Shown piece by piece: positions 11,321-54,822 of a stretch of DNA of 64,000 nt. The stretch is from Gammaproteobacteria bacterium (lineage in GTDB: Bacteria > Pseudomonadota > Gammaproteobacteria > UBA4575), in contig CBDCUI010000007.1 of assembly GCA_965222615.1 (NCBI GenBank), positions 224,001 to 288,000 on the forward strand, in the 5' to 3' direction. Below the pieces are notes generated by a model. That model was not told where the DNA came from and made no database searches. It saw nothing but the letters and a program-made list of their open reading frames with translations. Numbering within the stretch: the stretch's first letter is position 1; each line of letters begins with the position of its first letter. Position numbers and translations under genes: made by a program.

Positions 11321-11358
11321 AACTATTTTCCCTGTGGTTTGCCCTTAAATTATTTAGT

Positions 11359-34848: not shown

Positions 34849-35517
34849 TTACATTTCAAGCTTATAACCCACTCCATATACAGAACGAATAATATCCTCC
34901 CCATTATTGATACTTGTGAGTTTTTTTCTAAGTTTTTTGATATGACTATCGATAGTTCGATCACTCACTACACGGTGATCATCATAAATCGAATCCATCA
35001 ATTTATTACGCGAATATATATGTCCTGGATCGTCCGCAAGAATTTTTAAAAGTTTAAACTCCACTGCGGTGAGCTCGGTTTGCTGTGTATGGATTCTCGC
35101 GATATGGCGTGATTCATCTAATTGCAATATGGGTTGATTTGACTTATTGATTCCATCTACACGACGTAAAATTGCTTTTATTCGCGCAATTACTTCGCGT
35201 GGGCTAAAGGGTTTGCATATGTAATCATCCGCGCCGAGTTCAAGCCCTAATAAACGATCAACCTCTTCCACTCTAGCAGTGATCATGATAATGGGGACAT
35301 TGGATCGATTGCGAATATCCCTACATATTTCCATGCCATCCTTTCCAGGCAACATTACATCTAATAAAACAATATCTGGCTTAATTTGTTTAAACTTGGT
35401 CAGCGCATTTTCTCCATCATGTTCTATCTCGTATTTAAAACCTGCTTGTCTAATATAATCTGCAAGCAGCTCTGCTACTTTTTGTTCATCCTCAATAATA
35501 AGTACGGTTTGGATCAT
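34849..35517 (-). CDS. baeR: OmpR-family response regulator, BaeR-like
   Basis: LLDVMLPGKDG, ARVEEVDRLLGLELGADDYICKPFSPRE, DRTIDSHIKKLR. Confidence 0.85.
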   Translation of the reverse strand: MIQTVLIIEDEQKVAELLADYIRQAGFKYEIEHDGENALTKFKQIKPDIVLLDVMLPGKDGMEICRDIRNRSNVPIIMITARVEEVDRLLGLELGADDYICKPFSPREVIARIKAILRRVDGINKSNQPILQLDESRHIARIHTQQTELTAVEFKLLKILADDPGHIYSRNKLMDSIYDDHRVVSDRTIDSHIKKLRKKLTSINNGEDIIRSVYGVGYKLEM

Positions 35518-35522
35518 GCGTC

Positions 35523-36947
35523 TTATTTGCTAGAATTTTTTGGTAGCGCGATATGAATGTGCAAACCACCAAGTGACGATTGCTTTGCTTCGATGATGCC
35601 TTGATGTGCTGCAACAATATTTTTGCAGATAGATAGCCCTAAACCTGCACCACCGGACTTACGATTACGCGAATTATCCACTCGATAAAGGCGCTCAAAT
35701 AATTTTGGAATGTCGGCAGCAGCTACACCAGGGCTTGAGTCATTAAAATCAATTACTACTTCATCTTTATTTTGCTTTAGCTCAATTTTTAATTTGCCCC
35801 CCTGGTTGGTATGACGTAGCGAGTTTGACAAAAGATTAGCAAACAGCTGATGCAAACGATTTGGATCTGCAAAAACAATTAAACTCGAGCTTAAATTTTC
35901 ATCATAAATTATATCGATATTATTACTTTTAAACTCATCTGCATAAAAATCAATGGCCTCATTCAACACTTCGCCGATATTGATATCCGCCTTTTTATAG
36001 CTCAATGCACCAACATCTGAAAGTGACAATTCATACAAATCATTTACTATAGTTTGAATATGCAAGATTTCAGCATGCAGTGATTCAATCACCTTTGGAG
36101 ACATCTCACGAACTCCATCTTTGATGGCTTCTATTTCCCCACGCAGTATAGTGAGTGGTGTACGTAACTCATGCGAGATATCAGCAATCCATTGTTGTCT
36201 AGATTTCTCGTTTTTTTCTAGCGTAGCTGCCAGTATATTGCATTCATTTGCCAATTGACTTAATTCGTCTTTAGTCGTTATCGAAAAGCGTGTGCCAAAA
36301 TTTCCAGCTGCAAGTGCGCGTGTGCTTGAAACTAATTCTTTTATTGGATTCACAAATCCTCTGGCTAACCAATATGCCATCAGTAGAGAGATTATAAAAA
36401 TCCCCAACGCACTATATTGAATAGTGCGAACTAACTGTTTAGTAAAACTTAAATCTAACTCGTCACGAATCTCAGTAGTCGGATTAAAGCTTAAATAACC
36501 AACAATCATATTGTCCGACATCAGTTCCAGTTCTATCGCATTATCCTTTGCAGACTCACGCCCTATCAGCAATACTCTGTTAGGATTTAATAATCGAATT
36601 CGATGCAGCATACCACCATGAAGTCTCACAGGGTTTTTTCTTTGTGGCTTTGCTTTTTGAAGTGAAGCATCTTGTTGTTTAAAATTACTATGACGCTTTC
36701 TAATCCCTTTAACAAGGAAGTCGCGCCAGGTCTTATGGTTAACTATAAGTGGGTCCCAACTTTTTTCTTTCTGATAAAATTTTTCTAAATCTATTTTGAC
36801 ATCGGCTAAAATTAAATTTTCATGTTCATTTAAATAACTTACAAACCCACGTTCTAATGCCCATTTGCTCAAAAAAACCATGCTTATCAATATAATCAAA
36901 CTTAGTGAAAATATTGCGATAAATAATTTGTGACTGAGCTTATGCAT
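35523..36947 (-). CDS. baeS: Sensor histidine kinase, BaeS-like
   Basis: Two TMs, HAMP, ADISHELRTPL, NLLSNSLR, RLYRVD.SRNR..GGAGLGLSI. Confidence 0.85.
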   Translation of the reverse strand: MHKLSHKLFIAIFSLSLIILISMVFLSKWALERGFVSYLNEHENLILADVKIDLEKFYQKEKSWDPLIVNHKTWRDFLVKGIRKRHSNFKQQDASLQKAKPQRKNPVRLHGGMLHRIRLLNPNRVLLIGRESAKDNAIELELMSDNMIVGYLSFNPTTEIRDELDLSFTKQLVRTIQYSALGIFIISLLMAYWLARGFVNPIKELVSSTRALAAGNFGTRFSITTKDELSQLANECNILAATLEKNEKSRQQWIADISHELRTPLTILRGEIEAIKDGVREMSPKVIESLHAEILHIQTIVNDLYELSLSDVGALSYKKADINIGEVLNEAIDFYADEFKSNNIDIIYDENLSSSLIVFADPNRLHQLFANLLSNSLRHTNQGGKLKIELKQNKDEVVIDFNDSSPGVAAADIPKLFERLYRVDNSRNRKSGGAGLGLSICKNIVAAHQGIIEAKQSSLGGLHIHIALPKNSSK

Positions 36948-37595
36948 AAAGGTGAGAACGTAATTAATCTAGATAAAAAACTATAGCAATCGATTACTCG
37001 ACAAAAGCAGCAAAAATATAGTTTCCTTATTGTTTGCATAAATAATGCTGCTGATTTTGAAATTGAGGTAAATAAAGGTTTGTGCCCCTATATTGATCAC
37101 ACTAAATTCAACCAATACCTGCACCAGATTTTCTATAAAATCAATTTATTTACACTATAAAGAAACTTAAGGATTATTCTCCAATAAGCAGTTCTAAAAA
37201 TTAATTTTATAGCCCTTATTAGCGTTATTGTGGATCGCACCCGGTATTTTCCTGAAACAACTAAATATTGATTATAAATCATGCATTTTCGCCAAATCTG
37301 CTTTGTACGTAGTGCTTTTGATCGTGCATAATAAGCTTTCGGCTAGTATTTATCCGTTGCTTTAGTTTTTTTTATAAGCTTGTTTAAATTTATAACTATC
37401 CGCCAAAAAGAGAATAGAACAATTAAACTTATTGCCTAATAATAAGAATATATATATAAAAATAAATAGTAATTAAGTCGAATCTCTTTTTATAAACAAA
37501 GGTATTCGAACCAAGTAAAATAATATTTATTGCATACTATGTATAGGTATGCAGTTGATTTTAAATTAGCTCATGATTTAGATGGAGGAGTTTTC

Positions 37596-38129
37596 ATGAA
37601 AGCCAATTATTATCTTTCACCGACTTTAAAAAGTACTCAAGAAATTTCAAAAGATTTGCATGGGGTTGGAATCAACGATTGGTTTATTCATGTCATCAGT
37701 AAAGATGAAGCGGGGCTCAATAAACAACACATTCACTCAAGTAACTATTTAGAAACTCTTGATTTACTACGTAATGGTGGCATCGGTGCTTTAATTGGTT
37801 TTATAGCTGGTGTTTTTGCAGCCGGCGCATTGATGTATTTCAAACCGTTTGGTCCCAACATGCCGGAATATGTATATCTTATTGTAATTGTTCTGCTGAC
37901 TTTGTTTGGGACGTGGGAAGGTGGACTTTTTGGCGTTGCGAGTGAAAATAAAAAGCTAGCGCACTTCCGTGACGAATTAGAAAATGGTCAATATTTAATT
38001 TTGATCTATACCGGGAAAAAACAAGAAGCGGCTGTAAAAAATGTAATGGCCGAAAAACATCCTGAAGCTAAATTAGTTGCCACGGATAGACAGTATTTTA
38101 ATCCATTTGGCAGTTTAAAAAGGATATAA
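37596..38129 (+). CDS. Hypothetical membrane protein (2 TM, Gly-rich hairpin)
   Basis: GGAGGAG RBS before ATG 37596; GALIGFIAG and LFGTWEGG helices. Confidence 0.7.
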   Translation: MKANYYLSPTLKSTQEISKDLHGVGINDWFIHVISKDEAGLNKQHIHSSNYLETLDLLRNGGIGALIGFIAGVFAAGALMYFKPFGPNMPEYVYLIVIVLLTLFGTWEGGLFGVASENKKLAHFRDELENGQYLILIYTGKKQEAAVKNVMAEKHPEAKLVATDRQYFNPFGSLKRI

Positions 38130-38220: not shown

Positions 38221-39120
38221 GTGAGTGCAACTTTAGCAGCTGCTCGTAGCCAATTCTTCGATCTTTTTGAAATATGTAAACCCCGCATCGCACTATTGGT
38301 ATTGGTCACTACTTTCACAGGCATGTGGTTAGCAGGAAATGGCACAGTGGGACTAGAACTCGTAGTTTTCACATTAATTGGTACTGGCCTTGCTTCTGCG
38401 GCAAGCGGTGCATTTAATAATTATGTAGATAGAGAAGTAGACAAACGTATGGCACGGACTCGTACTCGTGCACTACCCTCTTCTCGATTACATCCTCAAC
38501 AAGCTCTATGGTTAGGAGTAATGTTGAGTATGTGGTCCTTTGCAATACTCTTTTATTTAGTTAATCCTTTAACTGCTTATTTAGCTGCCGGCACAACCTT
38601 TTTCTATATTGTAATTTACACAATTTGGTTGAAACGCTCTTCTTCTTTATGCACTGAAGTGGGTGGCATTGCAGGAGCATTACCTCCTGTAATTGGCTGG
38701 GCAGCAGTAAGTAATGAAATTGCTTGGCCCGCCTTAGTGATGTTTTTAATCATGTTTATTTGGCAACCACCCCATTTTTGGGCTTTAGCACTCCTGCGAG
38801 CCGATGAATACCGCCAAGCGAATTTACCTATGTTACCTGTGGTAAGCGGTAAGCGAGCTACAAAATTACGTATGCTGCTATACACAATTGCTTTAATTCC
38901 AGCAAGTACCTCAATGTACTGGCTAGGGCTAGTAGGTCCTGTTTACCTATTTTTGTCGTTAGCCTTAGGTGTTGTGTATTTAATATTGACCATAGACTTT
39001 GCACGTAAGCCTATTACTCACCAAAGCACGCGTAGACTGTTTGGGTTCTCCATTTTGTACTTACTGGGTTTATTTACATTAATCTTTGTAGATTGCCAGT
39101 GTGGAACTGGAATAGTTTGA
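38221..39120 (+). CDS. cyoE: Protohaem IX farnesyltransferase (haem o synthase)
   Basis: KPRI, NNYVDREVD..M.RT..R.LP, YT.WLKR, GALPP.IGW, WQPPHFWAL. Confidence 0.95.
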   Translation: MSATLAAARSQFFDLFEICKPRIALLVLVTTFTGMWLAGNGTVGLELVVFTLIGTGLASAASGAFNNYVDREVDKRMARTRTRALPSSRLHPQQALWLGVMLSMWSFAILFYLVNPLTAYLAAGTTFFYIVIYTIWLKRSSSLCTEVGGIAGALPPVIGWAAVSNEIAWPALVMFLIMFIWQPPHFWALALLRADEYRQANLPMLPVVSGKRATKLRMLLYTIALIPASTSMYWLGLVGPVYLFLSLALGVVYLILTIDFARKPITHQSTRRLFGFSILYLLGLFTLIFVDCQCGTGIV

Positions 39121-39163: not shown

Positions 39164-40516
39164 ATGGCAATTGCCATTATTATAATTTTACTCGTTATTG
39201 GGTCTCTTATTTTTCATTTTATGAGTCCGTGGTACTTCACAGAATTGGCTTCTAACTGGGGCATGATTGATGTAACCGTGTTAATTACATTTATAGTCTG
39301 TGGAATTGTCTTTGTTGCCGTCAATTTATTCTTGGCGTACTGCATTATTAAATTTAGAAATAAAAACAAAGATCAACGTGCTAAATACGAACCGGAAAAT
39401 AAAAAATTAGAAGGCTGGCTCACTATTATCACCGCTATTGGTGTAGTCGCCATGTTAGCACCAGGATTAATTGTCTGGGGCAAATTCGTATCACCACCGG
39501 ATAACGTGGCAATCGTCGAAGCAGTTGGTCAACAATGGCGATGGAGCTTTCGCCTCCCCGGTAAGGACGGAAAACTTGGTACCACCGATACCAAGAAAAT
39601 AAGTATCGATAATCCATTTGGAATGAATGCCGATGATCCGCATGGTCAAGACGACATTTTGATTGCTGGTAGTGAATTACATATACCAGTTGACCAGCCT
39701 GTTAAATTTCTTTTGCGCTCAAAAGATGTACTTCACAATTTCACCGTTCCACAATTTCGCGTGAAGATGGACTTAGTACCGGGAATGGTGACCTGGCAAT
39801 GGCTAACTCCTACCCGCACTGGAACTTTTGATGTTCTCTGTGAAGAACTATGTGGCATTGCTCATCATGCCATGCGTGGCAGAGTGGTAGTGGAAGAAGA
39901 AGAACAATATAAAATCTGGTTATCCCAACAACCAACCTATGCACAATCAGCTGCTCATCAACCAGGTGATGCCGCTGCCGGCAAAACTTTATATCAAGTC
40001 TGCGCTTCATGCCATGGGCTCGAGGGAGAAGGAAATCAAGCATTAAATGCGCCTAAAATCAGTGGCCAAGAAAATTGGTATCTAAAACGTCAACTTACTT
40101 ATTTTAAAGATGGTATTCGTGGCGCAAACCCACAAGATGCCTTTGGGCAGCAAATGGCCCCAATGGTAGCAACTCTGGCGGATGAAACCGCAATGAATGA
40201 TATCGCAGCTTATATCCAAACCTTACCCAATAAGCCTTCTACCCCAACCATAAGTGGTAATGTAGAAAACGGGCGAGACCTTTATGAAACTTGTGGCAAA
40301 TGTCATGGTAAACAGGCAGAGGGGAATTGGGCAGTGAGTGCACCACGTATTGCTGGCATGAGTGACTGGTATTTAGTGACACAACTTAAGAATTTTAAGA
40401 ACGGAATTCGTGGTGCTCATCCTAATGATACAACAGGAAAGCAAATGGGATTGATGGTCCCAGGTTTAAGTGATGAGAAAATCAACGACCTAGTCGCATA
40501 TATCAACACATTGTAA
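39164..40516 (+). CDS. coxB: Cytochrome c oxidase subunit II with two fused cytochrome c domains
   Basis: GQQWRW, DVLHNF, CuA motif CEELCGIAHHAM; CASCH and CGKCH haem motifs. Confidence 0.93.
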   Translation: MAIAIIIILLVIGSLIFHFMSPWYFTELASNWGMIDVTVLITFIVCGIVFVAVNLFLAYCIIKFRNKNKDQRAKYEPENKKLEGWLTIITAIGVVAMLAPGLIVWGKFVSPPDNVAIVEAVGQQWRWSFRLPGKDGKLGTTDTKKISIDNPFGMNADDPHGQDDILIAGSELHIPVDQPVKFLLRSKDVLHNFTVPQFRVKMDLVPGMVTWQWLTPTRTGTFDVLCEELCGIAHHAMRGRVVVEEEEQYKIWLSQQPTYAQSAAHQPGDAAAGKTLYQVCASCHGLEGEGNQALNAPKISGQENWYLKRQLTYFKDGIRGANPQDAFGQQMAPMVATLADETAMNDIAAYIQTLPNKPSTPTISGNVENGRDLYETCGKCHGKQAEGNWAVSAPRIAGMSDWYLVTQLKNFKNGIRGAHPNDTTGKQMGLMVPGLSDEKINDLVAYINTL

Positions 40517-40570: not shown

Positions 40571-42319
40571 ATGGCACATGTTGCATTAGCCGACAAAGGA
40601 CAAGAACTTGCCCATCCAAAGACTTGGATTGGCATGTATGTTTGGAGCCAAGATCACAAAGTAATCGGCATTCAGTATATTATCACCGCTACACTGGTGG
40701 GGATTATCGGGGTTGTATTATCCGCTTTGATGCGTCTGCAGTTAGGTTATCCTGATGTCTTTGATTTTATACAGCCTAACGAATATTACTCTGCAGTTAC
40801 CTTGCATGGCATGATTATGGTTATCTTCATGCTTACTGCTTTTTTCCTGGGAGGATTTGGCAATCTATTAATTCCGTTGATGTGCGGAGCCAGAGATATG
40901 GCGTTTCCCTATATGAATATGCTCAGTTATTGGGTGTTTTTAGCTTCAGTCATCGTGTTATGTACAAGCTTCTTTGTACCAGGTGGCCCTACTGGTGCGG
41001 GCTGGACCTTATATCCGCCACAAGCTATTTCGGAAGGTACGGCCGGGGCTGGCTGGGGAATTTTACTGATGTTGGGTTCATTGGCATTGTTTATTGTCGC
41101 ATTCACCATGGGTGGCTTGAACTACATAACTACCGCATTTCAAGCGCGCACCCGCGGAATGACATTAATGCGTATGCCGTTATCTGTGTGGGGCATCATC
41201 ATGGCGACCATTTTAGGCTTGTTGGCCTTCCCTGCATTGCTAGTGGCCGCAGTTATGATGTTATTAGATATTCTATTGGGTACGAGTTTCTTTATGCCCG
41301 CCATGACATCACTTGGAGAACAAATGGATACTACGGGTGGTACGCCAATTTTATTCCAGCATTTGTTTTGGTTTTTTGGGCACCCTGAAGTATATATCGT
41401 AGCATTACCTATGTTTGGTATCGCATCAGATTTAATCAGCACACATGCCAGGAAAAATATCTTTGGTTATCGCATGATGGTGTGGGCATTAGTCGCCATT
41501 GGCGGATTAAGCTTCATTGTATGGGCTCATCATATGTATGTCAGCGGTATGAACCCTTACTTTGGTTTCTTTTTTGCTACGACTACATTAATCATTGCCG
41601 TACCCACTGCCATTAAAGTCTACAACTGGGTACTCACTCTTTGGCATGGCAATATTCATCTTACCATTCCAATGATGTTTGCACTTGCTTTCATCTTTAC
41701 CTTTATCCACGGTGGTTTAACGGGCCTGTTTTTAGGCAATGTAGCCGTGGATGTACCACTTTCTGATACCTATTTTGTAATTGGACATTTTCATATGGTC
41801 ATGGGCGTCTCACCCTTCTTGGTAATATTTGGAGGCATTTATCATTGGTTTCCAAAGTTCACTGGACGTATGATGAATGAAACCATGGGTAAGATTCATT
41901 TCTGGGTTACTTTCTTAGGTACGTATGCAGTTTATTTACCTATGCATTATCTTGGCATAATGGGTGTACCGCGTCGTTACTATACATATGGCACGATAGA
42001 AGCCTTTCCAGATTCTGTACAGACTGTGAATACAAGCATCACCATCGCAGCGCTGATCGTTGGGACCGTACAGCTTTTATTTATCATTAATATCGTATGG
42101 AGTTTATTTAATGGCAAAAAGGCTGACAGCAATCCATGGCGTGCAACCACACTAGAATGGCAAACTCCGGACACACCTCCTAAACATGGTAACTGGGGTC
42201 CTGAGCTTCCCGTAGTGTATCGCTGGGCCTATTCTTACAGCGTACCTGGGGCAAAAGAAGACTTCATTCCACAAAATGAAGAACCAAGCGAAAACTCTAG
42301 GCACGAAGTGGAGACTTAG
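40571..42319 (+). CDS. coxA: Cytochrome c oxidase subunit I (A1 type)
   Basis: DHKVIG, HGMIM, GWTLYPP, FWFFGHPEVY, WAHHM, HFH, PRRY. Confidence 0.96.
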   Translation: MAHVALADKGQELAHPKTWIGMYVWSQDHKVIGIQYIITATLVGIIGVVLSALMRLQLGYPDVFDFIQPNEYYSAVTLHGMIMVIFMLTAFFLGGFGNLLIPLMCGARDMAFPYMNMLSYWVFLASVIVLCTSFFVPGGPTGAGWTLYPPQAISEGTAGAGWGILLMLGSLALFIVAFTMGGLNYITTAFQARTRGMTLMRMPLSVWGIIMATILGLLAFPALLVAAVMMLLDILLGTSFFMPAMTSLGEQMDTTGGTPILFQHLFWFFGHPEVYIVALPMFGIASDLISTHARKNIFGYRMMVWALVAIGGLSFIVWAHHMYVSGMNPYFGFFFATTTLIIAVPTAIKVYNWVLTLWHGNIHLTIPMMFALAFIFTFIHGGLTGLFLGNVAVDVPLSDTYFVIGHFHMVMGVSPFLVIFGGIYHWFPKFTGRMMNETMGKIHFWVTFLGTYAVYLPMHYLGIMGVPRRYYTYGTIEAFPDSVQTVNTSITIAALIVGTVQLLFIINIVWSLFNGKKADSNPWRATTLEWQTPDTPPKHGNWGPELPVVYRWAYSYSVPGAKEDFIPQNEEPSENSRHEVET

Positions 42320-42321
42320 TC

Positions 42322-42987
42322 GTGACAGCTACACTTGTCGTTTTAGCTTTTATTTTGGGCGGAGTTGTAATTTGGCTGATTCGCCAAACCATTAATACAC
42401 AACCGTGGGCCGAAGAAGGGTTAGTAGGTCATGATCATGCTGGTGGTGCCTTTTCAATTCCCCCTGCAAAAGTTGGTTTACTAGTGTTCCTGGCAGTTGC
42501 GAGTTCCGTGTTTTCATTGTTTGTCAGCGCCTATTTCCAACGCATGGAGTTTGGTGATTGGCAACCGCTACCCGAACCGAGTGTTTTATGGTTTAACACC
42601 GGTTTATTAATTTTAGCAAGTGTCTTTTTTCAACTGGCACGCAATGCAGCCGTTCATAACAAAGCCCGTGGTGTGAAATCCAATTTGTTGATTGCAGGGC
42701 TTTTCACTCTTGCGTTCATCGCAGGGCAGTTGTGGGCTTGGCAAGGACTACAAGACGCAGGTTATTTTCTTACCAACAATCCTGCCAATGCATTCTTTTA
42801 TGTGTTAACCACGGTACATGCCTTACATATACTTGGCGGGTTATGGGTATGGAGCAAAACTACGTTTAAATTACAAAATAATGTTGAAGTACAGAAGGTT
42901 CGTATGAGTGTAGAGCTCTGCACCATTTATTGGCACTTCTTACTGTTAGTTTGGTTAGTGTTATTCGCACTACTATTGTCTACTTAA
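42322..42987 (+). CDS. Cytochrome c oxidase subunit III-like (CoxO type)
   Basis: WFNTGLL..S, FFYVLT.VHALH, YWHFL. Confidence 0.88.
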   Translation: MTATLVVLAFILGGVVIWLIRQTINTQPWAEEGLVGHDHAGGAFSIPPAKVGLLVFLAVASSVFSLFVSAYFQRMEFGDWQPLPEPSVLWFNTGLLILASVFFQLARNAAVHNKARGVKSNLLIAGLFTLAFIAGQLWAWQGLQDAGYFLTNNPANAFFYVLTTVHALHILGGLWVWSKTTFKLQNNVEVQKVRMSVELCTIYWHFLLLVWLVLFALLLST

Positions 42988-43016: not shown

Positions 43017-43694
43017 ATGGCACAAAGTTCTGGAGATGTTATAACAAACGATGCTGCAAATAGTCTAGTAACGGATTGGGCCGCAGATAAAGAAGTATTT
43101 AAGGTCCACTGGGGCAAGGCCATGATGTGGATTTTCTTACTCAGTGATACATTCATCTTTACTTCTTTTCTTACCGGCTATATGAAGGTACGTATCAGCT
43201 CTACGATACCGTGGCCGAATGCCAGTGAGATTTTTGCATTATCATTCGGCGGCGAACCCATTCCACTAATCCTCATTGCGATTATGACTATGGTGTTGAT
43301 CACTAGTAGTGGCACCATGGCGCTGGCAGTGAACTATGGCTATCGTAGAGATCGTGGCAAAACTGCTTTATTCTTACTCATTACCGCAGCATTTGGTCTT
43401 ACTTTTGTCGGTATGCAAGCCTTTGAGTGGACTAAACTCATCGTCGATGAAGGCGTACGCCCTTGGAGCAACCCATTTGGTGCCCCACAATTTGGTGCCT
43501 GCTTCTTTATGATCACAGGATTTCATGGTGGCCACGTATCTGGGGGAGTAATTTACTTAACCTATGTAGCGATTGGAGTGTTAAACGGTCGTTATGAGAA
43601 AAAAGGCTATGATATCGTCGAGATTGCCGGTCTCTACTGGCACTTTGTAGATTTGGTTTGGGTATTTATTTTTGCATTCTTTTATCTTTGGTGA
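43017..43694 (+). CDS. Cytochrome c oxidase subunit III-like (CoxP type)
   Basis: WGKAMMWIFLLSDTFIF, FFMITGFHGGHV, GLYWHFVDLVW. Confidence 0.9.
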   Translation: MAQSSGDVITNDAANSLVTDWAADKEVFKVHWGKAMMWIFLLSDTFIFTSFLTGYMKVRISSTIPWPNASEIFALSFGGEPIPLILIAIMTMVLITSSGTMALAVNYGYRRDRGKTALFLLITAAFGLTFVGMQAFEWTKLIVDEGVRPWSNPFGAPQFGACFFMITGFHGGHVSGGVIYLTYVAIGVLNGRYEKKGYDIVEIAGLYWHFVDLVWVFIFAFFYLW

Positions 43695-43703
43695 GGAATA
43701 AAA

Positions 43704-44063
43704 ATGGCAGCAGAAGGACAACAACACCCCCTTAGTATTTATATCTGGATATGGATTTTGCTATTCATACTCAGCACATTTTCTTATCTAGTGGACTATT
43801 TCCAAATTCAAGGCTATTTAAGGTGGAACCTTATTCTCACCTTTATGATGTTAAAGGCTGGTTTCATTGTAGCCATCTTTATGCACATGGCCTGGGAAAG
43901 ACTGGCACTAATTACTGCCATACTCGCCCCACCTATTGTTTTATTATTGCTTATAGGACTGATGTCTATTGAAGGCGATTACACTTATCTTTCTCGCGCC
44001 AAGTTTTTTGGTGTAGAGGAAGCACCTATTGTAGAACATCACGGCAGTAAAGCCGGGCATTAG
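43704..44063 (+). CDS. Cytochrome c oxidase subunit IV family protein
   Basis: QQHP..IY..IW..LF.LS.FSY, KAG.IVA.FMHM.WE. Confidence 0.85.
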   Translation: MAAEGQQHPLSIYIWIWILLFILSTFSYLVDYFQIQGYLRWNLILTFMMLKAGFIVAIFMHMAWERLALITAILAPPIVLLLLIGLMSIEGDYTYLSRAKFFGVEEAPIVEHHGSKAGH

Positions 44064-44086
44064 ACTTTATTTTTATCAAAAATGTT

Positions 44087-44734
44087 GTGATTCCAAAATG
44101 GCTCGTAACCCACAACTTTAGATATAACCAAGCACTAGCTAGTCTTACATTATTGTTTTTTTTTCTATTGTTGCATTGCACTAATGCACAATCGCATGGC
44201 GGTGTATTCCTGGAAGATGATTTATGCGTGATTCAAATTGGTTTTTACCAAGCGCATTTCACTATTTATCAGCCGCAACAAAGCCAGCATAAAGAATTTT
44301 GTGAAGATATACCCTATGCCAACGAAAGTATATTTGTAATGGAATATATGCATGATGGCTTAAGAGAGGCTCCAGTAGATTTCCGTATCATTAAAGATGT
44401 ACTTAATCGCGGTCGATTTTTTCAACAAAAAGATCTAGAGAAAATTGATAACATCGAAGATATATCGGTTTTTTATCAAGCACCTTCAGTTCAACAAACC
44501 GGTGTATTCTTAGCATTGCACCAATTTGAACAAAAAGGTAATTATGTTGGCATTGTAACAGCACATATCCCAAACAATACTGAACAATACGTTGCCACAT
44601 TCCCGTTTAGAGTGGGTAGTCGAGACTGGGGTTATTTACCTTTGTTGGTAGTTCTAATAATTTTTTTACAGCTAAATTACTGGTTAATGAATGGTGGCTA
44701 TAGCCGCTTAAGAAGACAGTTTCACTCTCAGTAA
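44087..44734 (+). CDS. PmoD/AmoD-like periplasmic copper protein
   Basis: Signal peptide then HGGV..EDD.C, HFT.YQP, EFCEDIP, LR..PVDFRII, FPF.VG and a C-terminal TM; matches the recalled PmoD/AmoD pattern; exact start uncertain. Confidence 0.7.
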   Translation: MIPKWLVTHNFRYNQALASLTLLFFFLLLHCTNAQSHGGVFLEDDLCVIQIGFYQAHFTIYQPQQSQHKEFCEDIPYANESIFVMEYMHDGLREAPVDFRIIKDVLNRGRFFQQKDLEKIDNIEDISVFYQAPSVQQTGVFLALHQFEQKGNYVGIVTAHIPNNTEQYVATFPFRVGSRDWGYLPLLVVLIIFLQLNYWLMNGGYSRLRRQFHSQ

Positions 44735-44752
44735 AAATAATTCTAACACAAA

Positions 44753-45187
44753 TTGAGATTTATGATTAACAACACTACAAAAATAATTTTGATATTTTTT
44801 TTGGTATTACTACCAATAATACTGCTAGCACAAGAAGATCAATCTGCTCCAGAAAATACAACAACAAAATGGACTGAGCAAAAACATTTTAAAGTAAGTA
44901 TCTCAAGCAAGCTTGACCCGATAACGATTAACACGATGCATGCATGGATTATTCATGTTGAAAATAACAAGCAACAAGATGTTTTAGAAGCGAATATAAC
45001 TGTTGATGGGGGAATGCCTGAACACGACCATGGACTACCTACTCACCCACAAATTACCAAGAATTTAGGTGATGGTTGCTACTTGCTTGAAGGTATGAAA
45101 TTTCATATGGGAGGTTGGTGGACAATCTCAATCGCTATTAACGATGGTAGCATTAGTGATCGTGTAACGTTTGACTTAAATTTGTAA
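44753..45187 (+). CDS. YtkA/FixH-like periplasmic Ig-fold protein (putative Cu chaperone)
   Basis: Signal peptide, DGGMPEHDHGLPT.P, Y..EGMKFHMGGWW. Confidence 0.78.
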   Translation: MRFMINNTTKIILIFFLVLLPIILLAQEDQSAPENTTTKWTEQKHFKVSISSKLDPITINTMHAWIIHVENNKQQDVLEANITVDGGMPEHDHGLPTHPQITKNLGDGCYLLEGMKFHMGGWWTISIAINDGSISDRVTFDLNL

Positions 45188-45195
45188 AAACCTCA

Positions 45196-46476
45196 ATGTC
45201 GAAAGTATCCCGAGGACTCTTAAGTTCAATTATTACCATTGGCATACTACTCGCTGCTATTTGGATTTATCATCAAACCAAACCTCTCAAAACATGGACC
45301 AAGCAAGAAATCAAACTTTTACAATCTCTGTGGATCGGTAACCTCCCTCCAGTCCCAGCCGATAGTAGCAATGCAGTTGCTGACGAACCACTTGCAGCAA
45401 AATTTGGCCATCAGCTATTTTTTGATTCAAGATTAAGTAAAAGCGGCAAGGTCTCATGTGCAACCTGTCATCAACCCGAACTTTTTTTCACAGATGGTTT
45501 AAAAATTGCAGAAGGCCATAAAGTAGGAACCCGCAATACTATGAGTGTTGTGGGAACAGTTTATAGTCCATGGTTTTTTTGGGACGGTCGCAGAGACAGT
45601 TTATGGTCACAAGCCTTAACACCATTAGAAACATCACATGAACACGCTGGCAACCGCATGCAATATGCAACGCTGATTTCACAAGACGCGGATTACCGCA
45701 CAACTTATCAAGCGCTATTTGGTAATTTACCTGATTTCTCTGATAGGGCCCGCTTTCCTCAAAATGCAGGACCTACGAATCAAACGCAGTGGGATAAAGC
45801 ATGGCAATCTATGCAGTCTAGCGACAGGCAAATTGTAAACACAGTCTTTGCCAATATCGGCAAATCTATTGCCGCCTATGAACGCTTACTTCTACCCAGC
45901 TCATCACGATTTGATGCCTATGTAGAAGCAATTCTAAATAGCGACTCAGCAGGAATGGAAATATTGAGTTTCAATGAGATTGCTGGATTAAAATTATTCA
46001 TCGGCAAAGCGCAGTGCATTAATTGCCACAATGGGCCACTTCTCACCAATAATGAATTTCATAATACCGGAATTCTATCTTCACCAGGACAACTACCAAG
46101 CATAGGCCGTGTTGAGGGTGCGCAGAACGTAGTTAGCGATCCATTTAATTGTTTAGGAACATTTGATGACGCTGCAGCCAAGGAATGTGATGAGTTAAGA
46201 TTTATAAGAACCGGCGATGAATTAATCGGTGCTCATAAAACGCCATCATTAAGAAATATTGCAGAAACTGCTCCCTATATGCATGCGGGACAACTAGATA
46301 GTCTTACAGAAGTGATCAAAAATTATAATCGTGCTCCAGCTGCAATGATTGGTCACAATGAAGTCAAACCATTAAATTTAAACATCATGGAGATGCAACA
46401 ATTAGAAGCTTTTCTACACAGTCTGTCTGCACCACTTGCAACTGAACCTAAATGGCTAAAACCTCCGAATAAATGA
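45196..46476 (+). CDS. Di-haem bCcP/MauG superfamily protein (MauG/MbnH-like)
   Basis: LFFD.RLS..GKVSCATCH, FWDGR, CINCH.GP, KTPSLRN...TAPYMHAG...L.EVI..Y. Confidence 0.88.
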   Translation: MSKVSRGLLSSIITIGILLAAIWIYHQTKPLKTWTKQEIKLLQSLWIGNLPPVPADSSNAVADEPLAAKFGHQLFFDSRLSKSGKVSCATCHQPELFFTDGLKIAEGHKVGTRNTMSVVGTVYSPWFFWDGRRDSLWSQALTPLETSHEHAGNRMQYATLISQDADYRTTYQALFGNLPDFSDRARFPQNAGPTNQTQWDKAWQSMQSSDRQIVNTVFANIGKSIAAYERLLLPSSSRFDAYVEAILNSDSAGMEILSFNEIAGLKLFIGKAQCINCHNGPLLTNNEFHNTGILSSPGQLPSIGRVEGAQNVVSDPFNCLGTFDDAAAKECDELRFIRTGDELIGAHKTPSLRNIAETAPYMHAGQLDSLTEVIKNYNRAPAAMIGHNEVKPLNLNIMEMQQLEAFLHSLSAPLATEPKWLKPPNK

Positions 46477-46572: not shown

Positions 46573-47016
46573 GTGTTTGTTGCCGATAATTCAACTACAA
46601 ACCAACCATTTAAAAGCTACTTAGCAATAGCCCCCTCAGTGACACAAATACTTAAAAGCATAGCTATTTTTACTTTTCTAAGTTTGCAAGCTGCTGAATC
46701 AGCTACAACTTTAATCATCTGTGAATACGATAAGTTTGCATCAGTTCAAAAAGTCGAACCTGTCACTGAGATTTTTCAATTAACCTTTTCAGTAAATAAA
46801 GAAACTAGTGAGGCTCAAGTAATCCGTAAAAATGGAACTACTGATGTACAACTTCTACCTACCGGCGGAGGATTCACTTTTATAGAAGTTAATGAACGTG
46901 GCAATGTTCTCACCACCACAGTTGATGTGTACGGAAAATCTGCTCACAGCCGAAATACCATTCTAGATAGTGAACTTATTCCTAGTCAGTTTTATGGTAC
47001 ATGTGACTATAAATAG
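46573..47016 (+). CDS. Hypothetical exported protein
   Basis: Hydrophobic leader, beta-rich body, terminal QFYGTC; start uncertain. Confidence 0.55.
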   Translation: MFVADNSTTNQPFKSYLAIAPSVTQILKSIAIFTFLSLQAAESATTLIICEYDKFASVQKVEPVTEIFQLTFSVNKETSEAQVIRKNGTTDVQLLPTGGGFTFIEVNERGNVLTTTVDVYGKSAHSRNTILDSELIPSQFYGTCDYK

Positions 47017-47048: not shown

Positions 47049-47801
47049 TTATCCTTGATCATGTAGTTCACAAGGACTACGCAGTTCTTCTGGAACATCA
47101 GGTGGACACACTCCACATGCTTGATTACCCGGGACAGCAAAATTAATTTTACGTGGATATGGTAAATCTAAATTATTCATAATTTCTATGAATTCTTGTT
47201 TTGACTTATTGTTCCCTAAGCGTGGATTACGAATTTTCTCTTGCGCAATCGTGCTAACGAAACGACCTTCGTAATCATGAGCTGGATACACAAGTGTATC
47301 TTCAGGTAAGCAGAACAACTTATTCTGAATGCTTTCATAAAGAGTTGCTGCATCGCCTGATTGAAAATCAGTCCGCCCACAAGCTTCTATAAGCAGCGCA
47401 TCACCTGTAAATACCATGTTCTGGACACCATTATCGATTAAATAAGCATAATGATGATCGGTATGTCCAGGGGTAAATAAGGGATATAATTCAATTTTAC
47501 CAACACGAAAAATTTTACCTTCTTCTACGCCAATATCTTGGCAAGGAAGCTCAGCTTGCTTGGGATAGACGATTTTATTTCCTGTGAGAGCTTTGAGCTT
47601 GGTTGCACTGGTGAGATGATCTGCATGAATATGGGTTTCTACCGTGTAATCAAGTTCTAGGTCTAGCTCTTTCAACACTTCCATATCACGCTCAACGGTT
47701 TCCAATACAGGGTCGATTAATGCGACTACTCCCGTATCTTGACAGGCTATTAAATATGTATAGGTAGATGAACTAGGTTCAAACAACTGGCGAAAAATCA
47801 A
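47049..47801 (-). CDS. Persulfide dioxygenase (ETHE1/Sdo-like MBL-fold protein)
   Basis: IFRQLFEP.SSTYTYL, ETHIHADH, TPGHT, FTGDALLI..CGRTDFQ, PAHDY, NPRL. Confidence 0.9.
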   Translation of the reverse strand: MIFRQLFEPSSSTYTYLIACQDTGVVALIDPVLETVERDMEVLKELDLELDYTVETHIHADHLTSATKLKALTGNKIVYPKQAELPCQDIGVEEGKIFRVGKIELYPLFTPGHTDHHYAYLIDNGVQNMVFTGDALLIEACGRTDFQSGDAATLYESIQNKLFCLPEDTLVYPAHDYEGRFVSTIAQEKIRNPRLGNNKSKQEFIEIMNNLDLPYPRKINFAVPGNQACGVCPPDVPEELRSPCELHDQG

Positions 47802-47829: not shown

Positions 47830-48117
47830 TTACTTATGGGCGATGGGTTTATCAGTAAATAAATAGTCTTTTAGTTCTTTGTCAAATGCAGGATCTTTAC
47901 GTCTAATCCACTCTAAAACCATCGCTGCATGCTCTTTTTCTTCATCTCGATTATGTGCAAGAATAGCTTTTAAATCTGAATCACTACACGCATCGACACG
48001 CTGATTGTACCAATCAACTGCTTCAAGCTCTTCCATTAAAGAAGTAATTGCACGATGCATATCTCGTGTTGCACTGGAGAGCTCATCAATAGATTCATGG
48101 TAACCTTCATTTGCCAT
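47830..48117 (-). CDS. Encapsulin-associated-type ferritin-like protein (EncFtn), short form
   Basis: YHE...LS..TRDMHRAI.SL.EELEAVDWYNQR...HNRDEEKEHAAM.LEW.RR. Confidence 0.9.
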   Translation of the reverse strand: MANEGYHESIDELSSATRDMHRAITSLMEELEAVDWYNQRVDACSDSDLKAILAHNRDEEKEHAAMVLEWIRRKDPAFDKELKDYLFTDKPIAHK

Positions 48118-51739: not shown

Positions 51740-52621
51740 TTACTGCAAAAGCCAAGCAACAAGCATTCGGATTTGTGCGTCATCTAGGCGCTTTTCAAAA
51801 GCTGGCATAACACCATTGCGTCCGTCCGCAATAGTTTGGCGTAAAGCAGCATCGGAATTACCATACAACCAGACGTCATCGCTAAGTCTTGGGGCACCCA
51901 GTGCGACATTGCCCTCACCTTCCATACCATGACAAGCCACACAGTTTTGTTGGAACAGCTTACCTCCTGCAGTAGTGGCGGTAGCGGCATCACCTGAAGC
52001 AAGTGTTTTAATGAAATTGATAAGCTGCGTTACTCCTTCTTCCCCAATAATATTTTGCCAGCCAATCATCGCTGCCTTACGTCCATGCTTTATAGTCTGC
52101 ATGATTTCGGATTCACTGCCGCCCCACTGCCAATCAGCATCATGTAAATTAGGAAATGCGTCGGCCTGCCCTTCGCCATTTGGTCCATGGCAAACCGCAC
52201 AATTTTGAATAAAAATACGTTGTGCCGTATTCATAATAGTCGTATCGTTTTGCAGCTCTGTAATGGAGCGCTGTACAATGTTGCTGCGCATTTGCGCAAA
52301 CTTTTCATCATAATGTATGAGACTTTGATCAAGCCTCCCACCTTGCGACCACTTTAGCATTCCGCTGAACGACCCAAGACCTGGATATAACATCAAATAC
52401 ACAACTGAAACCACTAGTGCAATTAAAATCATCCAAAACCACCACATCGGCGCAGGGTATGACCCTTCACTGAGTGTTTCGTCCCAAATCGGTGACTTAG
52501 ACTCTTCGTACTTATTTGCTGAAAAATAAATGCTGAAAATTAACCATAACAAGCCTAACAAACTGGTGATTGTTATAGCAACAATCCATCCTCCCCAAAA
52601 ATCTGTCGGCATATCAGCCAT
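51740..52621 (-). CDS. ccoP: cbb3-type cytochrome c oxidase subunit III
   Basis: WDETL.E...P.P.WW, YPGLG, CAVCH and CVACH, PNL.D.DW.WGG, GRNGVMPA. Confidence 0.93.
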   Translation of the reverse strand: MADMPTDFWGGWIVAITITSLLGLLWLIFSIYFSANKYEESKSPIWDETLSEGSYPAPMWWFWMILIALVVSVVYLMLYPGLGSFSGMLKWSQGGRLDQSLIHYDEKFAQMRSNIVQRSITELQNDTTIMNTAQRIFIQNCAVCHGPNGEGQADAFPNLHDADWQWGGSESEIMQTIKHGRKAAMIGWQNIIGEEGVTQLINFIKTLASGDAATATTAGGKLFQQNCVACHGMEGEGNVALGAPRLSDDVWLYGNSDAALRQTIADGRNGVMPAFEKRLDDAQIRMLVAWLLQ

Positions 52622-52757
52622 CGCGATACTCGTCTTCTAACGGAATACGTTCCGCTTTTTTTAAAGAATCATTCGAAGATTTCATCGAAACCCAAATGAC
52701 AACTCCGATCATGAATGCCATTACCAACATATCGCCAGCAAAAATAAAATAAGTCAT
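52614..52757 (-). CDS. ccoQ: cbb3-type oxidase small subunit
   Basis: 47-aa ORF between ccoO and ccoP: MTYFIFAGDMLVMAFMIGVVIWVSMKSSNDSLKKAERIPLEDEYRDG. Confidence 0.8.
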   Translation of the reverse strand: MTYFIFAGDMLVMAFMIGVVIWVSMKSSNDSLKKAERIPLEDEYRDG

Positions 52758-52759
52758 CA

Positions 52760-53383
52760 CTATTCTCCCAGCGAATATGCAGTACCAAGAACTTGTAGGT
52801 AGGCAATTAGGGCATCCAATTCAGACTTTTCCTCCAGCGTTGATTCTGCGGTTTCAATGTCTGTGTCGGAATAAGGATGCCCAAGCCTTTGTAAGGCACT
52901 GAGTTTATTGACAATATCGCGATCTTCATTGGCCGGTCGTTGAGCCAGCCATGGGTAGGCCGGCATGATGGAGTTAGGGACCACATCACGAGGATTGAGC
53001 AAATGGATGCGGTGCCAATCATCTGAATACTTGCCACCAACACGATGTAAATCAGGTCCGGTACGTTTTGAACCCCATAAAAAAGGTCGGTCATAAACAA
53101 ATTCGCCGGCACGAGAAAAAGTGCCATAACGCTGTATCTCGGCCACTAGAGGACGAATTTGTTGTGAATGACAAGTGCTACAGGCTTCGCGAATGTAGAT
53201 ATCACGACCGACTAATTCTAGTGGCTTGTAAACTTGCACATTATTAGTTGGTGTAACAAGCGATTCTTGAAACAAACTTGGAAGCACTTGCACAAGTCCA
53301 CCAATCGCTGACACAAACAAAATACCAAAAATGAGTAGACCAACATTTTTTCCCAATAGTTGATGTAATCTAAAGGCGCTCAT
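52760..53383 (-). CDS. ccoO: cbb3-type cytochrome c oxidase subunit II
   Basis: [39 protein letters not shown]. Confidence 0.95.
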
Positions 53384-54822
53384 GCGACAGCCTCCGATAC
53401 TATCGGTGGTCTAACCGCAATCGTGCGACGACCTATTATTGTATTTATAAAATTATAGGCCATTAGCAAAGTGCCAAATAAAAATAGAAGTCCTGCAACA
53501 AAACGAAGTAAATAATAAGGACCCATTGCAGCCATGATTTCTGTAAAGCTATAACGAAGTTCGCCTAGTTCATCTAAACTAAGCCATAAAACCCCTTGCG
53601 AGATTCCAGCACCCCACATAGCTACTATGTAAAGCATCGTGCCTGCAAGCGCTAACCAAAAATGGAGATTTGCCAAGCGCACACTATACAGTTCAGCACC
53701 AACAAGCCTGGGCACAAGAAAATAGAAGGTTCCATAGGTTATGAGTGCATTCCAACCTAGTGCACCAGAATGCACATGCCCGATGGTCCATTCTGTGAAA
53801 TGACTAATGACATTAACGCTTTTGATTGCAAGCATCGGCCCTTCGAATGTAGCGAGTCCATAAAAAGCCAGTGCAAGTACAATGAATTTCAGTGCGGGGT
53901 CCGAACGAAGTTTTTGCCATGCTGTACTAACCGTCATGATTCCGTTAATCATCGATGCCCAGGATGGCGCAAGTAGTACCAGACTCATGACCATACCTAA
54001 ATTTTGCACCCATTCTGGAACGGCGTTGTAATGCAAGTGATGCGGTCCAGCCCAGATGTAGCTATAGGTAAACGCCCAAAATGCAACAATCGAAAGTTTA
54101 TAACTCCAAATTGGTCGTTCGGCCTGCTTGGGTAGAAAGTAATACATCATTCCAAGAAAGCCACCTGTCAATAAAAAACCTACAGCATTATGACCGTACC
54201 ACCATTGTACGATTGCATCCTGTGCACCGGCATATAAAGAATATGACTTGGTCAAGGTAACCGGTATAGCGAGGTTATTGACGATATGCAGCATCGCTAT
54301 AACGATAATTAAACCACCATAAAACCAATTCGATATGTAAATCTCTTTTATCCGCCGCTTGGCAATCGTGCCAAAGAACACAATTGCAAAACACACCCAA
54401 ACCAGCGTTATAGCAATATCAAATGGCCATTCAAGTTCCGCATATTCTTTTGAACTATTAAAACCAGCGAGTAGAGATAGTCCACCTAACAGTATGGCAA
54501 TTTGCCAAGCCCAACAGGTAAACCAGGCAAGATTCGTTGCATAAAGACGTACATGGCTAGTGCGCTGTACACTGTAATATGCCGTTCCCATGAGTGCTGA
54601 AACACCAAAGCCAAAGATCACCACATTTGTGTGAAAGGTTCGCAATCTACCAAACGATAACCACGACTGCTCAAAGCTCAACCCTGGCCAAACAAGTTCC
54701 GCAGCGACATACACTCCAGCCAACATACCAATTAATGCCCAAAAAATTGAAAACATTACTAAGATTGTAACAATGCGATCACTGTAGATTTCAACGGATA
54801 AATTTTTAGCGGGATCAGACAC
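53380..54822 (-). CDS. ccoN: cbb3-type cytochrome c oxidase subunit I
   Basis: [49 protein letters not shown]. Confidence 0.96.

Follow-up and report, generated by a model that had tools for sequence, protein, structure and literature searches.

Background

The closest described relatives of the protein considered here form the PmoD/AmoD/AmoE family, whose characterised member, PmoD of Methylocystis sp. Rockwell (structure 6CPD), has a CuA site made up of Cys41, Met49 and His51 within a Cx7MxHxnC motif (PMC6189053). Mutation of Met49 to alanine abolishes this site, and a representative of another motif class, Cx9HxnC, bound copper but showed no CuA features (PMC6189053). According to the main text of that study (Fisher et al. 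2018), all PmoD homologues occur in genomes encoding copper membrane monooxygenases (CuMMOs), the family being specific to methane and ammonia oxidisers; likewise, a 2026 review describes the gene as unique to ammonia oxidisers and methanotrophs (PMC13058606). Here we examine a gene of this superfamily that is located, instead, within a cytochrome oxidase (cox) operon, at positions 44087..44734 (+) of a 64-kb stretch (termed here the window) of contig CBDCUI010000007.1 from a gammaproteobacterium. It is followed by genes for a YtkA-like protein and for a MauG-type di-haem enzyme, with which it forms a recurrent three-gene cassette.

Both of these neighbours also have described relatives. YtkA of Bacillus subtilis is CtaK; strains mutated in ctaK lack cytochrome c oxidase activity and subunit II, a defect that added copper rescues (PMC9145763). 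Within YcnJ, which has the architecture CopC-CopD-YtkA, the terminal YtkA domain partly substitutes for CtaK (PMC13344008). Enzymes of the MauG type are set apart from canonical peroxidases, which have a His-Met E haem, by a His-Tyr E haem; they use H2O2 as an oxidant for proteins and are poor peroxidases (PMC11892367). The copper proteins MbnP, MopE and CorA are each paired with a MauG-like di-haem enzyme and contain a tryptophan-derived kynurenine at the copper site (PMC11951088, PMC3912023).

The reading favoured here, to which we assign a probability of about 0.5, is that the three genes constitute a periplasmic copper-handling cassette that, in this genome, has been recruited to supply the CuA centre of a caa3-type oxidase. 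What is new is a distinct PmoD subfamily within a three-gene copper cassette that is joined to an oxidase operon: a full-text search of a limited literature collection returned no paper treating a link between PmoD and YtkA, MauG, cytochrome c oxidase or Woeseia.

Results

A PmoD homologue within an oxidase gene array

A Pfam scan of the 215-residue, GTG-initiated gene product matched no families. In a PDB-wide sequence search the sole significant match is PmoD of Methylocystis sp. Rockwell (6cpd_A, E = 3e-14), with residues 45-177 of the query aligned to residues 4-128 of the chain; the runner-up has an E-value of 0.18. A profile of the clade to which the protein belongs (see below) matches 6CPD with E = 1.9e-19 (73.2 bits). 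An AlphaFold2 (AF2) model, built from 35 relatives and with a mean pLDDT of 87.9, has only one strong Foldseek match, namely 6cpd_B (E = 3.9e-13, TMt 0.85, 27% identity); the second best has E = 9.9e-05. The protein is, both by sequence and by fold, a true PmoD homologue, which is what an initial annotation of this DNA had claimed. It combines the characteristics of the PmoD/AmoD superfamily: similarity to the PmoD periplasmic domain, a cupredoxin-like fold, the arrangement of signal peptide, soluble domain and C-terminal transmembrane helix, and two invariant cysteines. The latter, Cys47 and Cys72 (codons starting at 44225 and 44300), align with PmoD Cys41 and Cys65 and are conserved in 78 and 79, respectively, of 79 relatives. 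Within the superfamily the protein falls into the Cx9HxnC class.

The gene is evidently more than a chance open reading frame (ORF), given 235 homologues at E ≤ 1e-3 in one search, 614 relatives at E ≤ 1e-3 (106 of them at E ≤ 1e-30) in a profile search of 1.84 billion representatives, and 211 confirmed relatives in a scan of 185,579 species genomes. It is present in a single copy within the window. Two other identities were considered and set aside: TorA, for which a lone NCBIfam row (E = 0.047) is taken to be a chance match, and a His-brace protein, for which chains of AA10 lytic polysaccharide monooxygenases are only weak fold matches (E of at least 3.5e-4, TMq about 0.33). Among ESM Atlas results, a 323-residue cluster in which YtkA occurs in 97% of the members (score 0.89) serves as a lead only, and the 30 feature matches do not converge on any one Pfam family, 'hypothetical protein' being the name given in the three rows listed.

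The topology claimed initially, that of an exported protein with a C-terminal membrane segment, agrees with the model, which has helices at residues 4-30 and 184-201 and a beta-rich domain between them. The helix and the cleavage rule indicate a signal peptide comprising residues 1-36 (44087-44194); in all 74 homologues having at least 12 residues upstream of His37, the -1 residue is Ala, Ser or Gly (66, 5 and 3 sequences) and the -3 residue is Ala, Val, Leu, Ile, Thr or Ser. Because the -1/-3 signal-peptidase rule thus holds for 74 of 74, the mature protein is predicted to begin with the invariant His37 (44195-44197). The cupredoxin-like soluble domain extends to about residue 180 (about 44626) and is followed by the membrane anchor (184-201; 44636-44689), beyond which lies a basic tail (a mean of 4.2 Lys/Arg versus 0.5 Asp/Glu) that places the soluble domain in the periplasm. 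The motifs singled out earlier are all present in the translation: HGG (37-39), EDDLC (43-47), HFTIYQP (57-63), EFCEDIP (70-76) and LREAPVDFRII (92-102).

The gene is the seventh in a co-directional array, running from ctaB to the MauG-like gene, in which gaps are 2-54 nucleotides; this bears out its tight placement with the cox genes. The 23-bp spacing reported after the gene for subunit IV (43704..44063) is likewise exact (44064-44086), and the gaps from subunit IV through the three cassette genes are all within 8-23 nucleotides. Nothing resembling a terminator was found between the gene for subunit IV and the cassette, in a pattern scan whose counts for promoters and terminators were no higher than in shuffled sequences. 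Statements about absence from the window are based on Pfam scans of 69 ORFs (11 + 58): these revealed no pmo/amo, sco or cox11 domain, as the initial annotation had noted for pmo/amo within the window and for sco and cox11 within the operon, and no PCuAC domain.

A sister subfamily of PmoD

A family tree was constructed from 175 rows, consisting of the window protein, 78 homologues from surveyed loci and 96 of 150 listed representatives (fragments and rows lacking the Cys-acidic motif were left out). FastTree divides these into two groups with a split support of 99, and IQ-TREE, applied to 85 of the 175 rows, yields the identical split (SH-aLRT 98). One group, a clade of 123 rows, holds the window protein and every surveyed locus; all of its rows have a Cx9H or CxnC motif, none has Cx7MxH, and position 89 is nearly always His. 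The other, of 52 rows, exhibits the motifs Cx8MH (20 rows), Cx9H (17), Cx8M (12) and Cx7MxH (2), and has Asp, Glu, Ser or Gln at position 89. The two groups are clearly homologous (hhalign probability 100, E = 9.2e-59). Since 6CPD scores higher with the 52-row profile (E = 4.8e-35, 123.9 bits) than with that of the window clade (73.2 bits), the characterised PmoD sits in the 52-row group, which, judging from its motif classes and from this better match, appears to be the PmoD set of methane and ammonia oxidisers. The tree thereby places the window protein in a separate sister subfamily of PmoD (split support 98-99). Within this subfamily it belongs to a 24-row clade (support 95), of which 23 rows carry both cox genes and the cassette; in the remaining row cox is present and the contig stops just beyond the PmoD-like gene.

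Copper ligands

The candidate ligands are conserved: among 79 sequences, His37 occurs in 77, Cys47 in 78, His57 (codon at 44255) in 78, and Cys72 and His89 (codon at 44351) in 79 each. The invariant set of the window clade comprises His37, Cys47, His57, Cys72-Glu-Asp and His89. These His, Cys and Glu/Asp residues are the basis for predicting that the protein binds copper. Whether the site could be of the purple, CuA-like type for which a test was proposed initially depends on the ligand set. When aligned with 6cpd_A, Cys47 and His57 occupy the positions of PmoD Cys41 and His51, and Cys72 that of Cys65, but Gln55 replaces Met49. The protein lacks the CuA-forming Cx7MxHxnC set and has instead the Cx9HxnC motif, the class to which 137 of the 175 family rows belong, with a single exception among the window-clade loci. 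With Gln at the methionine position, and with a member of the Cx9HxnC class having formed no CuA centre (PMC6189053), a purple centre is not expected in the window protein and is considered unlikely; this part of the initial annotation finds no support.

The same residues bear on the idea that a PmoD-like homodimer functions as a redox centre, with a CuA-like site from which the oxidase or the di-haem enzyme would receive electrons. Although the PmoD fold, the location of Cys47 and His57 at CuA ligand positions and the adjacency of the gene to two redox enzymes would be in keeping with such a role, Gln55 stands at the methionine ligand, 123 of 123 window-clade rows are of the Cx9H or CxnC type and none is Cx7MxH, and the Met49Ala and Cx9HxnC results (PMC6189053) point the same way; we regard a redox centre as very unlikely.

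The YtkA/CtaK-like partner

The putative Cu(I) chaperone encoded by the next gene (44753..45187, +) is a 144-residue periplasmic His/Met protein of the YtkA/CtaK type (PF13115, E = 4.3e-11; 43.7 bits, cut-off 25.9). Eight of its residues, His63, Trp65, Met88, His91, His93, His118, Met119 and Trp123, are invariant in 60 of 60 sequences. The best fold match to its model (pLDDT 89.0) is the Helicobacter pylori copper-resistance protein CrdA (9ll2_A, E = 4.5e-07; Ag-bound form 9ll4_A, E = 1.2e-06, TMt 0.81), CrdA matches having TM-scores of 0.77-0.81. There is no Cys within its first 40 residues that could provide a lipoprotein anchor of the CtaK type, and it is therefore not a lipoprotein. Among the 59 loci whose YtkA-like ORF is complete, 19 encode the PmoD-like and YtkA-like proteins as one ORF. 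A complex prediction for residues 37-180 of the former with residues 40-144 of the latter scored 0.01 (against a mark of 0.32) in a run without controls, which counts neither way as regards binding.

The MauG-type partner

The third cassette gene (45196..46476, +) encodes a 426-residue di-haem enzyme with an N-terminal membrane anchor (CCP_MauG, E = 3.5e-39). Its two CxxCH motifs (Cys88/Cys91/His92 and Cys274/Cys277/His278) have Cys and His conserved in 56-57 of 57 sequences. Its scores fall below the equivalog cut-offs both of TTQ_mauG (TIGR03791, 131.7 against 443.85) and of MbnH (TIGR04039, 131.5 against 362.85). Tyr377, present in 57 of 57, aligns with Met258 of the Nitrosomonas peroxidase 1iqc, which we take to be the haem ligand of that enzyme; two CxxCH motifs together with a tyrosine in the E-haem methionine column characterise the MauG type.

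Might this protein nevertheless be an ordinary cytochrome c peroxidase acting on respiratory H2O2, with the two small proteins as passengers or electron donors? Its best PDB sequence matches are indeed canonical peroxidases (1zzh, E = 1.2e-24; 1iqc, E = 3.7e-24). Against this, the invariant Tyr377 in the Met-ligand column of 1iqc implies His-Tyr ligation, that is, the MauG type, a poor peroxidase (PMC11892367), and the three genes keep company in 60-61 of 80 loci, all of which makes a plain peroxidase most improbable.

Gene neighbourhoods

The neighbourhood sample comprised the best 80 of the 211 relatives, each with up to 10 kb of flanking sequence on either side, which was searched using the window's own proteins; neighbours were counted within 8 kb of the PmoD-like homologue, for which 58 of the 80 loci have enough flank. 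A YtkA-like neighbour occurs in 61 loci and a MauG-like neighbour in 60, a stronger linkage than that to cox genes, which are found in 38 (by component: subunit IV in 38, subunits I and II in 33 each, ctaB in 30). Both cox and the cassette are present in 33 of the 80 loci (28 of the 58 with enough flank), the cassette only in 28 (16 of 58), cox only in 5 (3 of 58), and neither in 14 (11 of 58). The conserved unit is the cassette; linkage to cox, though stable in the window's lineage, is one of several contexts. Conservation of the cox linkage is partial, extending to 38 of 80 loci (31 of 58 with enough flank) and to the whole of the window's 24-row clade.

Several observations weigh against the oxidase as the dedicated client of the cassette. 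In 42 of 80 loci (27 of 58 with enough flank) the homologue has no cox gene nearby, and this within a sample that, being the best 80 of 211, leans toward close kin of the window. Eight cox-less cassette loci are flanked by unrelated housekeeping genes, with a TonB-dependent receptor gene directly downstream in two of them (L038 and L064); with flanks of this kind, the cassette is not specific to the oxidase. Members of a sister group within the same subfamily have a multicopper oxidase gene beside them instead (8 of 13 cassette-less loci examined), which lies directly downstream together with a gene for a protein of about 227 residues. When 60 cassette-linked PmoD-like sequences are compared with 19 others, Glu80 is the sole residue conserved only in the former. 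Finally, CtaK of Bacillus is thought to act together with Sco, and Sco is absent from the 69 scanned ORFs.

The multicopper-oxidase form constitutes a second cassette: the PmoD-like gene is followed directly by a gene for a multicopper oxidase of 554-601 residues and then by one for a protein of about 223-250 residues with weak similarity to Cu-oxidase_2. It is found in loci L028, L030, L039, L049, L051, L057, L061 and L078, about 0.6-3 kb downstream of the PmoD-like match at 10001 (at 7118 in L049). In the table of Fisher et al., Woeseia oceani XK5 shows this gene order too, and MCA2130 of Methylococcus capsulatus has a multicopper oxidase as its neighbour (PMC6189053).

A separate observation concerns genes for a TonB-dependent receptor and a DUF6152 protein, which recur just downstream of either form, at 12143-13165 in L038, 12136-14988 in L064, 12178-13203 and 13937-15943 in L076, and 10165-11196 in L049. 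Their recurrence may point to a connection with metal uptake at the outer membrane.

These contexts raise the alternative that the cassette is a general module for periplasmic copper acquisition or homeostasis, serving any copper enzyme or a buffering function, and that its placement beside cox merely reflects lineage-specific gene order. The cassette's presence without cox in 28 of 80 loci (16 with enough flank), eight of them with unrelated flanks and some with a TonB-dependent receptor directly downstream (L038, L064) or nearby (L076), is what such a module would lead one to expect, as are the pairing of same-subfamily relatives with multicopper oxidases (8 of 13 loci and the Woeseia oceani row), the pairing of PmoD proper with CuMMO, copCD or PCuAC genes (PMC6189053), and the at least 6 to 8 changes that the cox label requires on the tree. 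But cox linkage is retained throughout the window's 24-row clade, the intergenic gaps are 8-23 nucleotides without a terminator-like site, and a role of the YtkA family in CuA assembly has been tested experimentally (PMC9145763, PMC13344008). On balance, a purely general module seems somewhat unlikely for this genome, and recruitment of the cassette to the oxidase remains the preferred reading.

A possible route of copper to the oxidase

If the cassette does supply the oxidase, the following scheme suggests itself. The PmoD-like protein, the YtkA/CtaK-like His/Met Cu(I) chaperone and the MauG-type di-haem enzyme would form a working unit that has been appended to a caa3-type (CoxMNOP-like) operon and would be transcribed together with its cox genes. 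The membrane-anchored PmoD-like protein would capture or hold copper at the periplasmic face of the membrane, where its Cys/Cys/His set and N-terminal His would resemble what Sco or CopC offer. It would pass copper to, or perhaps take copper from, the YtkA-like chaperone, which in turn would metallate the CuA centre of subunit II, as supposed for CtaK in Bacillus; and the MauG-type enzyme would mature, or redox-condition, one of its two small partners. The initial annotation suggested that the PmoD-like protein itself may deliver copper to the CuA/CuB sites. A role in copper supply is still the most reasonable reading; nothing, however, points to CuB, and for CuA the better-founded metallation candidate is the YtkA/CtaK-like neighbour rather than the PmoD-like protein. 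The scheme names a candidate CuA assembly route for an operon with neither a sco nor a PCuAC gene in its 64-kb surroundings.

A more speculative extension, which we consider unlikely as a whole, combines two ideas: that a copper site is completed when the MauG-type enzyme oxidises an invariant residue in one of its two small partners, and that the PmoD superfamily is a general membrane-tethered relay for periplasm-facing copper enzymes. The best candidate for an oxidised residue may be Trp65 (in His63-x-Trp65) or Trp123 of the YtkA-like chaperone. A signature of a MauG target within the PmoD-like protein was sought as well and was discarded, cassette-only conservation there being limited to Glu80. 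Were the first idea true, MauG-dependent copper proteins with a protein-derived, kynurenine-like ligand would gain a fourth family, the first tied to the assembly of a respiratory oxidase; were the second true, the clients of the relay would be CuMMOs, multicopper oxidases and cytochrome oxidases, and the PmoD superfamily would be no speciality of methane and ammonia oxidisers.

Distribution beyond methane and ammonia oxidisers

The named carriers among the 80 loci are all Gammaproteobacteria but one, and include Woeseiaceae, Pseudohongiellaceae, Thiotrichales, Chromatiales and two Methylococcales. The exception is a contig of 7722 bp (L020, CAXMUG010000128.1) binned as 'uncultured Mycobacterium sp.', whose cox-plus-PmoD-like locus is near-identical to that of a Thiotrichales metagenome-assembled genome (L021), the two having end branches of 0.022 and 0.029 in the 175-row tree; this contig is probably mis-binned.

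Evidence of such carriers exists in the table accompanying the original description of the family. Sheet 1 of supplementary file 2 (MOESM4) of Fisher et al. contains six rows, from four genomes, that are marked 'other' and have 'Species contains CuMMO' set to 0 (PMC6189053), in conflict with the universality of CuMMOs stated in the main text. These rows come from Pseudohongiella spirulinae KCTC 32221, from Woeseia oceani XK5, from the Woeseiaceae bin JSS_woes1 (three genes, two of them annotated as YtkA-like) and from Gammaproteobacteria bacterium RIFCSPLOWO2_02_FULL_56_15, which has the same name as our locus L036 and for which the table gives subunit IV at -1, subunit 3 at -2 and an adjoining YtkA (PMC6189053). 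According to the same table, P. spirulinae has the three-gene cassette and W. oceani the multicopper-oxidase form. In the main text of that paper 'Woeseiaceae' and 'Pseudohongiella' occur 0 times, and the CuMMO-free rows are not discussed there. The PmoD family extends beyond methane and ammonia oxidisers. A well-populated sister subfamily in other Gammaproteobacteria, tied by gene order and by fusion to a CtaK-like chaperone, a MauG-type enzyme, and cytochrome and multicopper oxidases, recasts the family as general periplasmic copper-trafficking machinery, and the cultured heterotrophs P. spirulinae KCTC 32221 and W. oceani XK5 open the question to study.

The oxidase operon and its surroundings

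The array begins with ctaB/cyoE (38221..39120, +; haem O synthase, TIGR01473, E = 2.4e-94, 316.3 bits against a cut-off of 210.3, with a UbiA Pfam match). Next comes oxidase subunit II (39164..40516, +), which has a CuA cupredoxin domain (COX2, E = 2.8e-20) and two C-terminal cytochrome c domains (Cytochrom_C, E = 1.3e-27, two stretches), and whose translation contains CEELCGIAHHAM, which we take to be the CuA ligand pattern. Subunit I (40571..42319, +) is an A-family haem-copper oxidase (COX1, E = 6.2e-139) that scores 658.8 bits with TIGR02891, slightly below the cut-off of 670.75. Two subunit-III-like proteins follow, a CoxO/CoxP-like pair with 25% identity to one another (42322..42987, +, COX3 E = 2.3e-07; 43017..43694, +, COX3 E = 1.3e-17), and then the 119-residue prokaryotic subunit IV (43704..44063, +; COX4_pro, PF03626, E = 1.8e-11, 44.7 bits against a cut-off of 28.9). 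The consecutive COX2, COX1 and two COX3 matches correspond to the layout called CoxMNOP, presumably an alternative aa3 oxidase.

Two ORFs of no known family flank the array. A 199-residue ORF just upstream of ctaB (37530..38129, +) has no Pfam match and has a relative near cox in 12 of 80 loci; a 147-residue ORF (46573..47016, +), 96 nucleotides past the MauG-like gene, matches nothing in Pfam or NCBIfam, has a relative downstream in 7 of 80 loci, and is possibly the last gene of the array. Five kb from this operon, on the opposite strand, lies a cbb3 oxidase operon (51740-54822, -; ccoN 53380-54822, ccoO 52760-53383, ccoP 51740-52621), from which it follows that the organism has at least two haem-copper oxidases needing copper. 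Upstream of the array is a two-component pair (34849-36947, -) that resembles BaeS/BaeR (426.1 and 304.7 bits, below the equivalog cut-offs); a copper sensor was considered for this pair, which by score is instead of the envelope-stress (BaeSR-like) type.

Other features of the window include a gene for an encapsulin-associated ferritin-like protein (47830-48117, -; TIGR04535, 138.2 bits against a cut-off of 125) adjoining one for a metallo-beta-lactamase-fold protein (47049-47801, -), with no encapsulin shell gene recognised among the neighbouring scanned ORFs; three tandem T2SSE-family ATPase genes (8784-12393, -; 449, 396 and 344 residues) that look like PilT/PilU-type pilus retraction motors; and a transposase-like ORF (27024-28010, +; HTH_38 and an rve integrase core) between pqi/mla-type transport genes and an endonuclease/phosphatase-family gene.

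Comparison with known systems

With PmoD (6CPD) and the PmoD/AmoD/AmoE family the window protein shares a signal peptide, a cupredoxin-like soluble domain (fold TM 0.85), a C-terminal membrane helix, two invariant cysteines, a His ahead of the first of these (column H1 in the table of PMC6189053), a His at the H2 position and the CEDIP motif. It differs in belonging to a sister subfamily in which Gln replaces the Met ligand of CuA and in which His89 is invariant among its relatives, rather than Asp, Glu, Ser or Gln as in the PmoD-type group; in having as subfamily neighbours YtkA-like, MauG-type, cox or multicopper oxidase genes rather than pmo/amo; and in that members of its subfamily occur in genomes that this table marks as CuMMO-free.

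As in CtaK and YcnJ, the neighbouring gene product has a YtkA domain with conserved His and Met residues and, as in YcnJ, this domain often shares a polypeptide with an extracytoplasmic copper-binding domain whose first residue is His. The fusion partner in the window's subfamily, however, is PmoD-like rather than CopC-CopD; the window protein, unlike CtaK, is not a lipoprotein; and its gene is linked to one for a MauG-type enzyme, a counterpart of which the portions of PMC9145763 and PMC13344008 drawn on here do not mention for Bacillus.

The MbnP/MbnH, MopE/SACCP and CorA/CorB pairs resemble the cassette in that a periplasmic or surface copper protein is co-encoded with a MauG-type di-haem enzyme. 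The putative copper proteins of the window have other folds (PmoD-like and YtkA-like), its enzyme scores below both the MbnH and MauG family cut-offs, and the kynurenine modification belongs to those systems.

By analogy only, the pair of small proteins also resembles Sco with PCuAC, that is, a membrane-anchored Cys/Cys/His protein and a small periplasmic His/Met protein encoded together with a CuA oxidase (PMC9145763), as well as CopC with YtkA in YcnJ. There is no homology with the Sco and PCuAC pair, neither domain of which appears in the Pfam scans of the window: Sco has a thioredoxin-like fold, whereas that of PmoD is cupredoxin-like.

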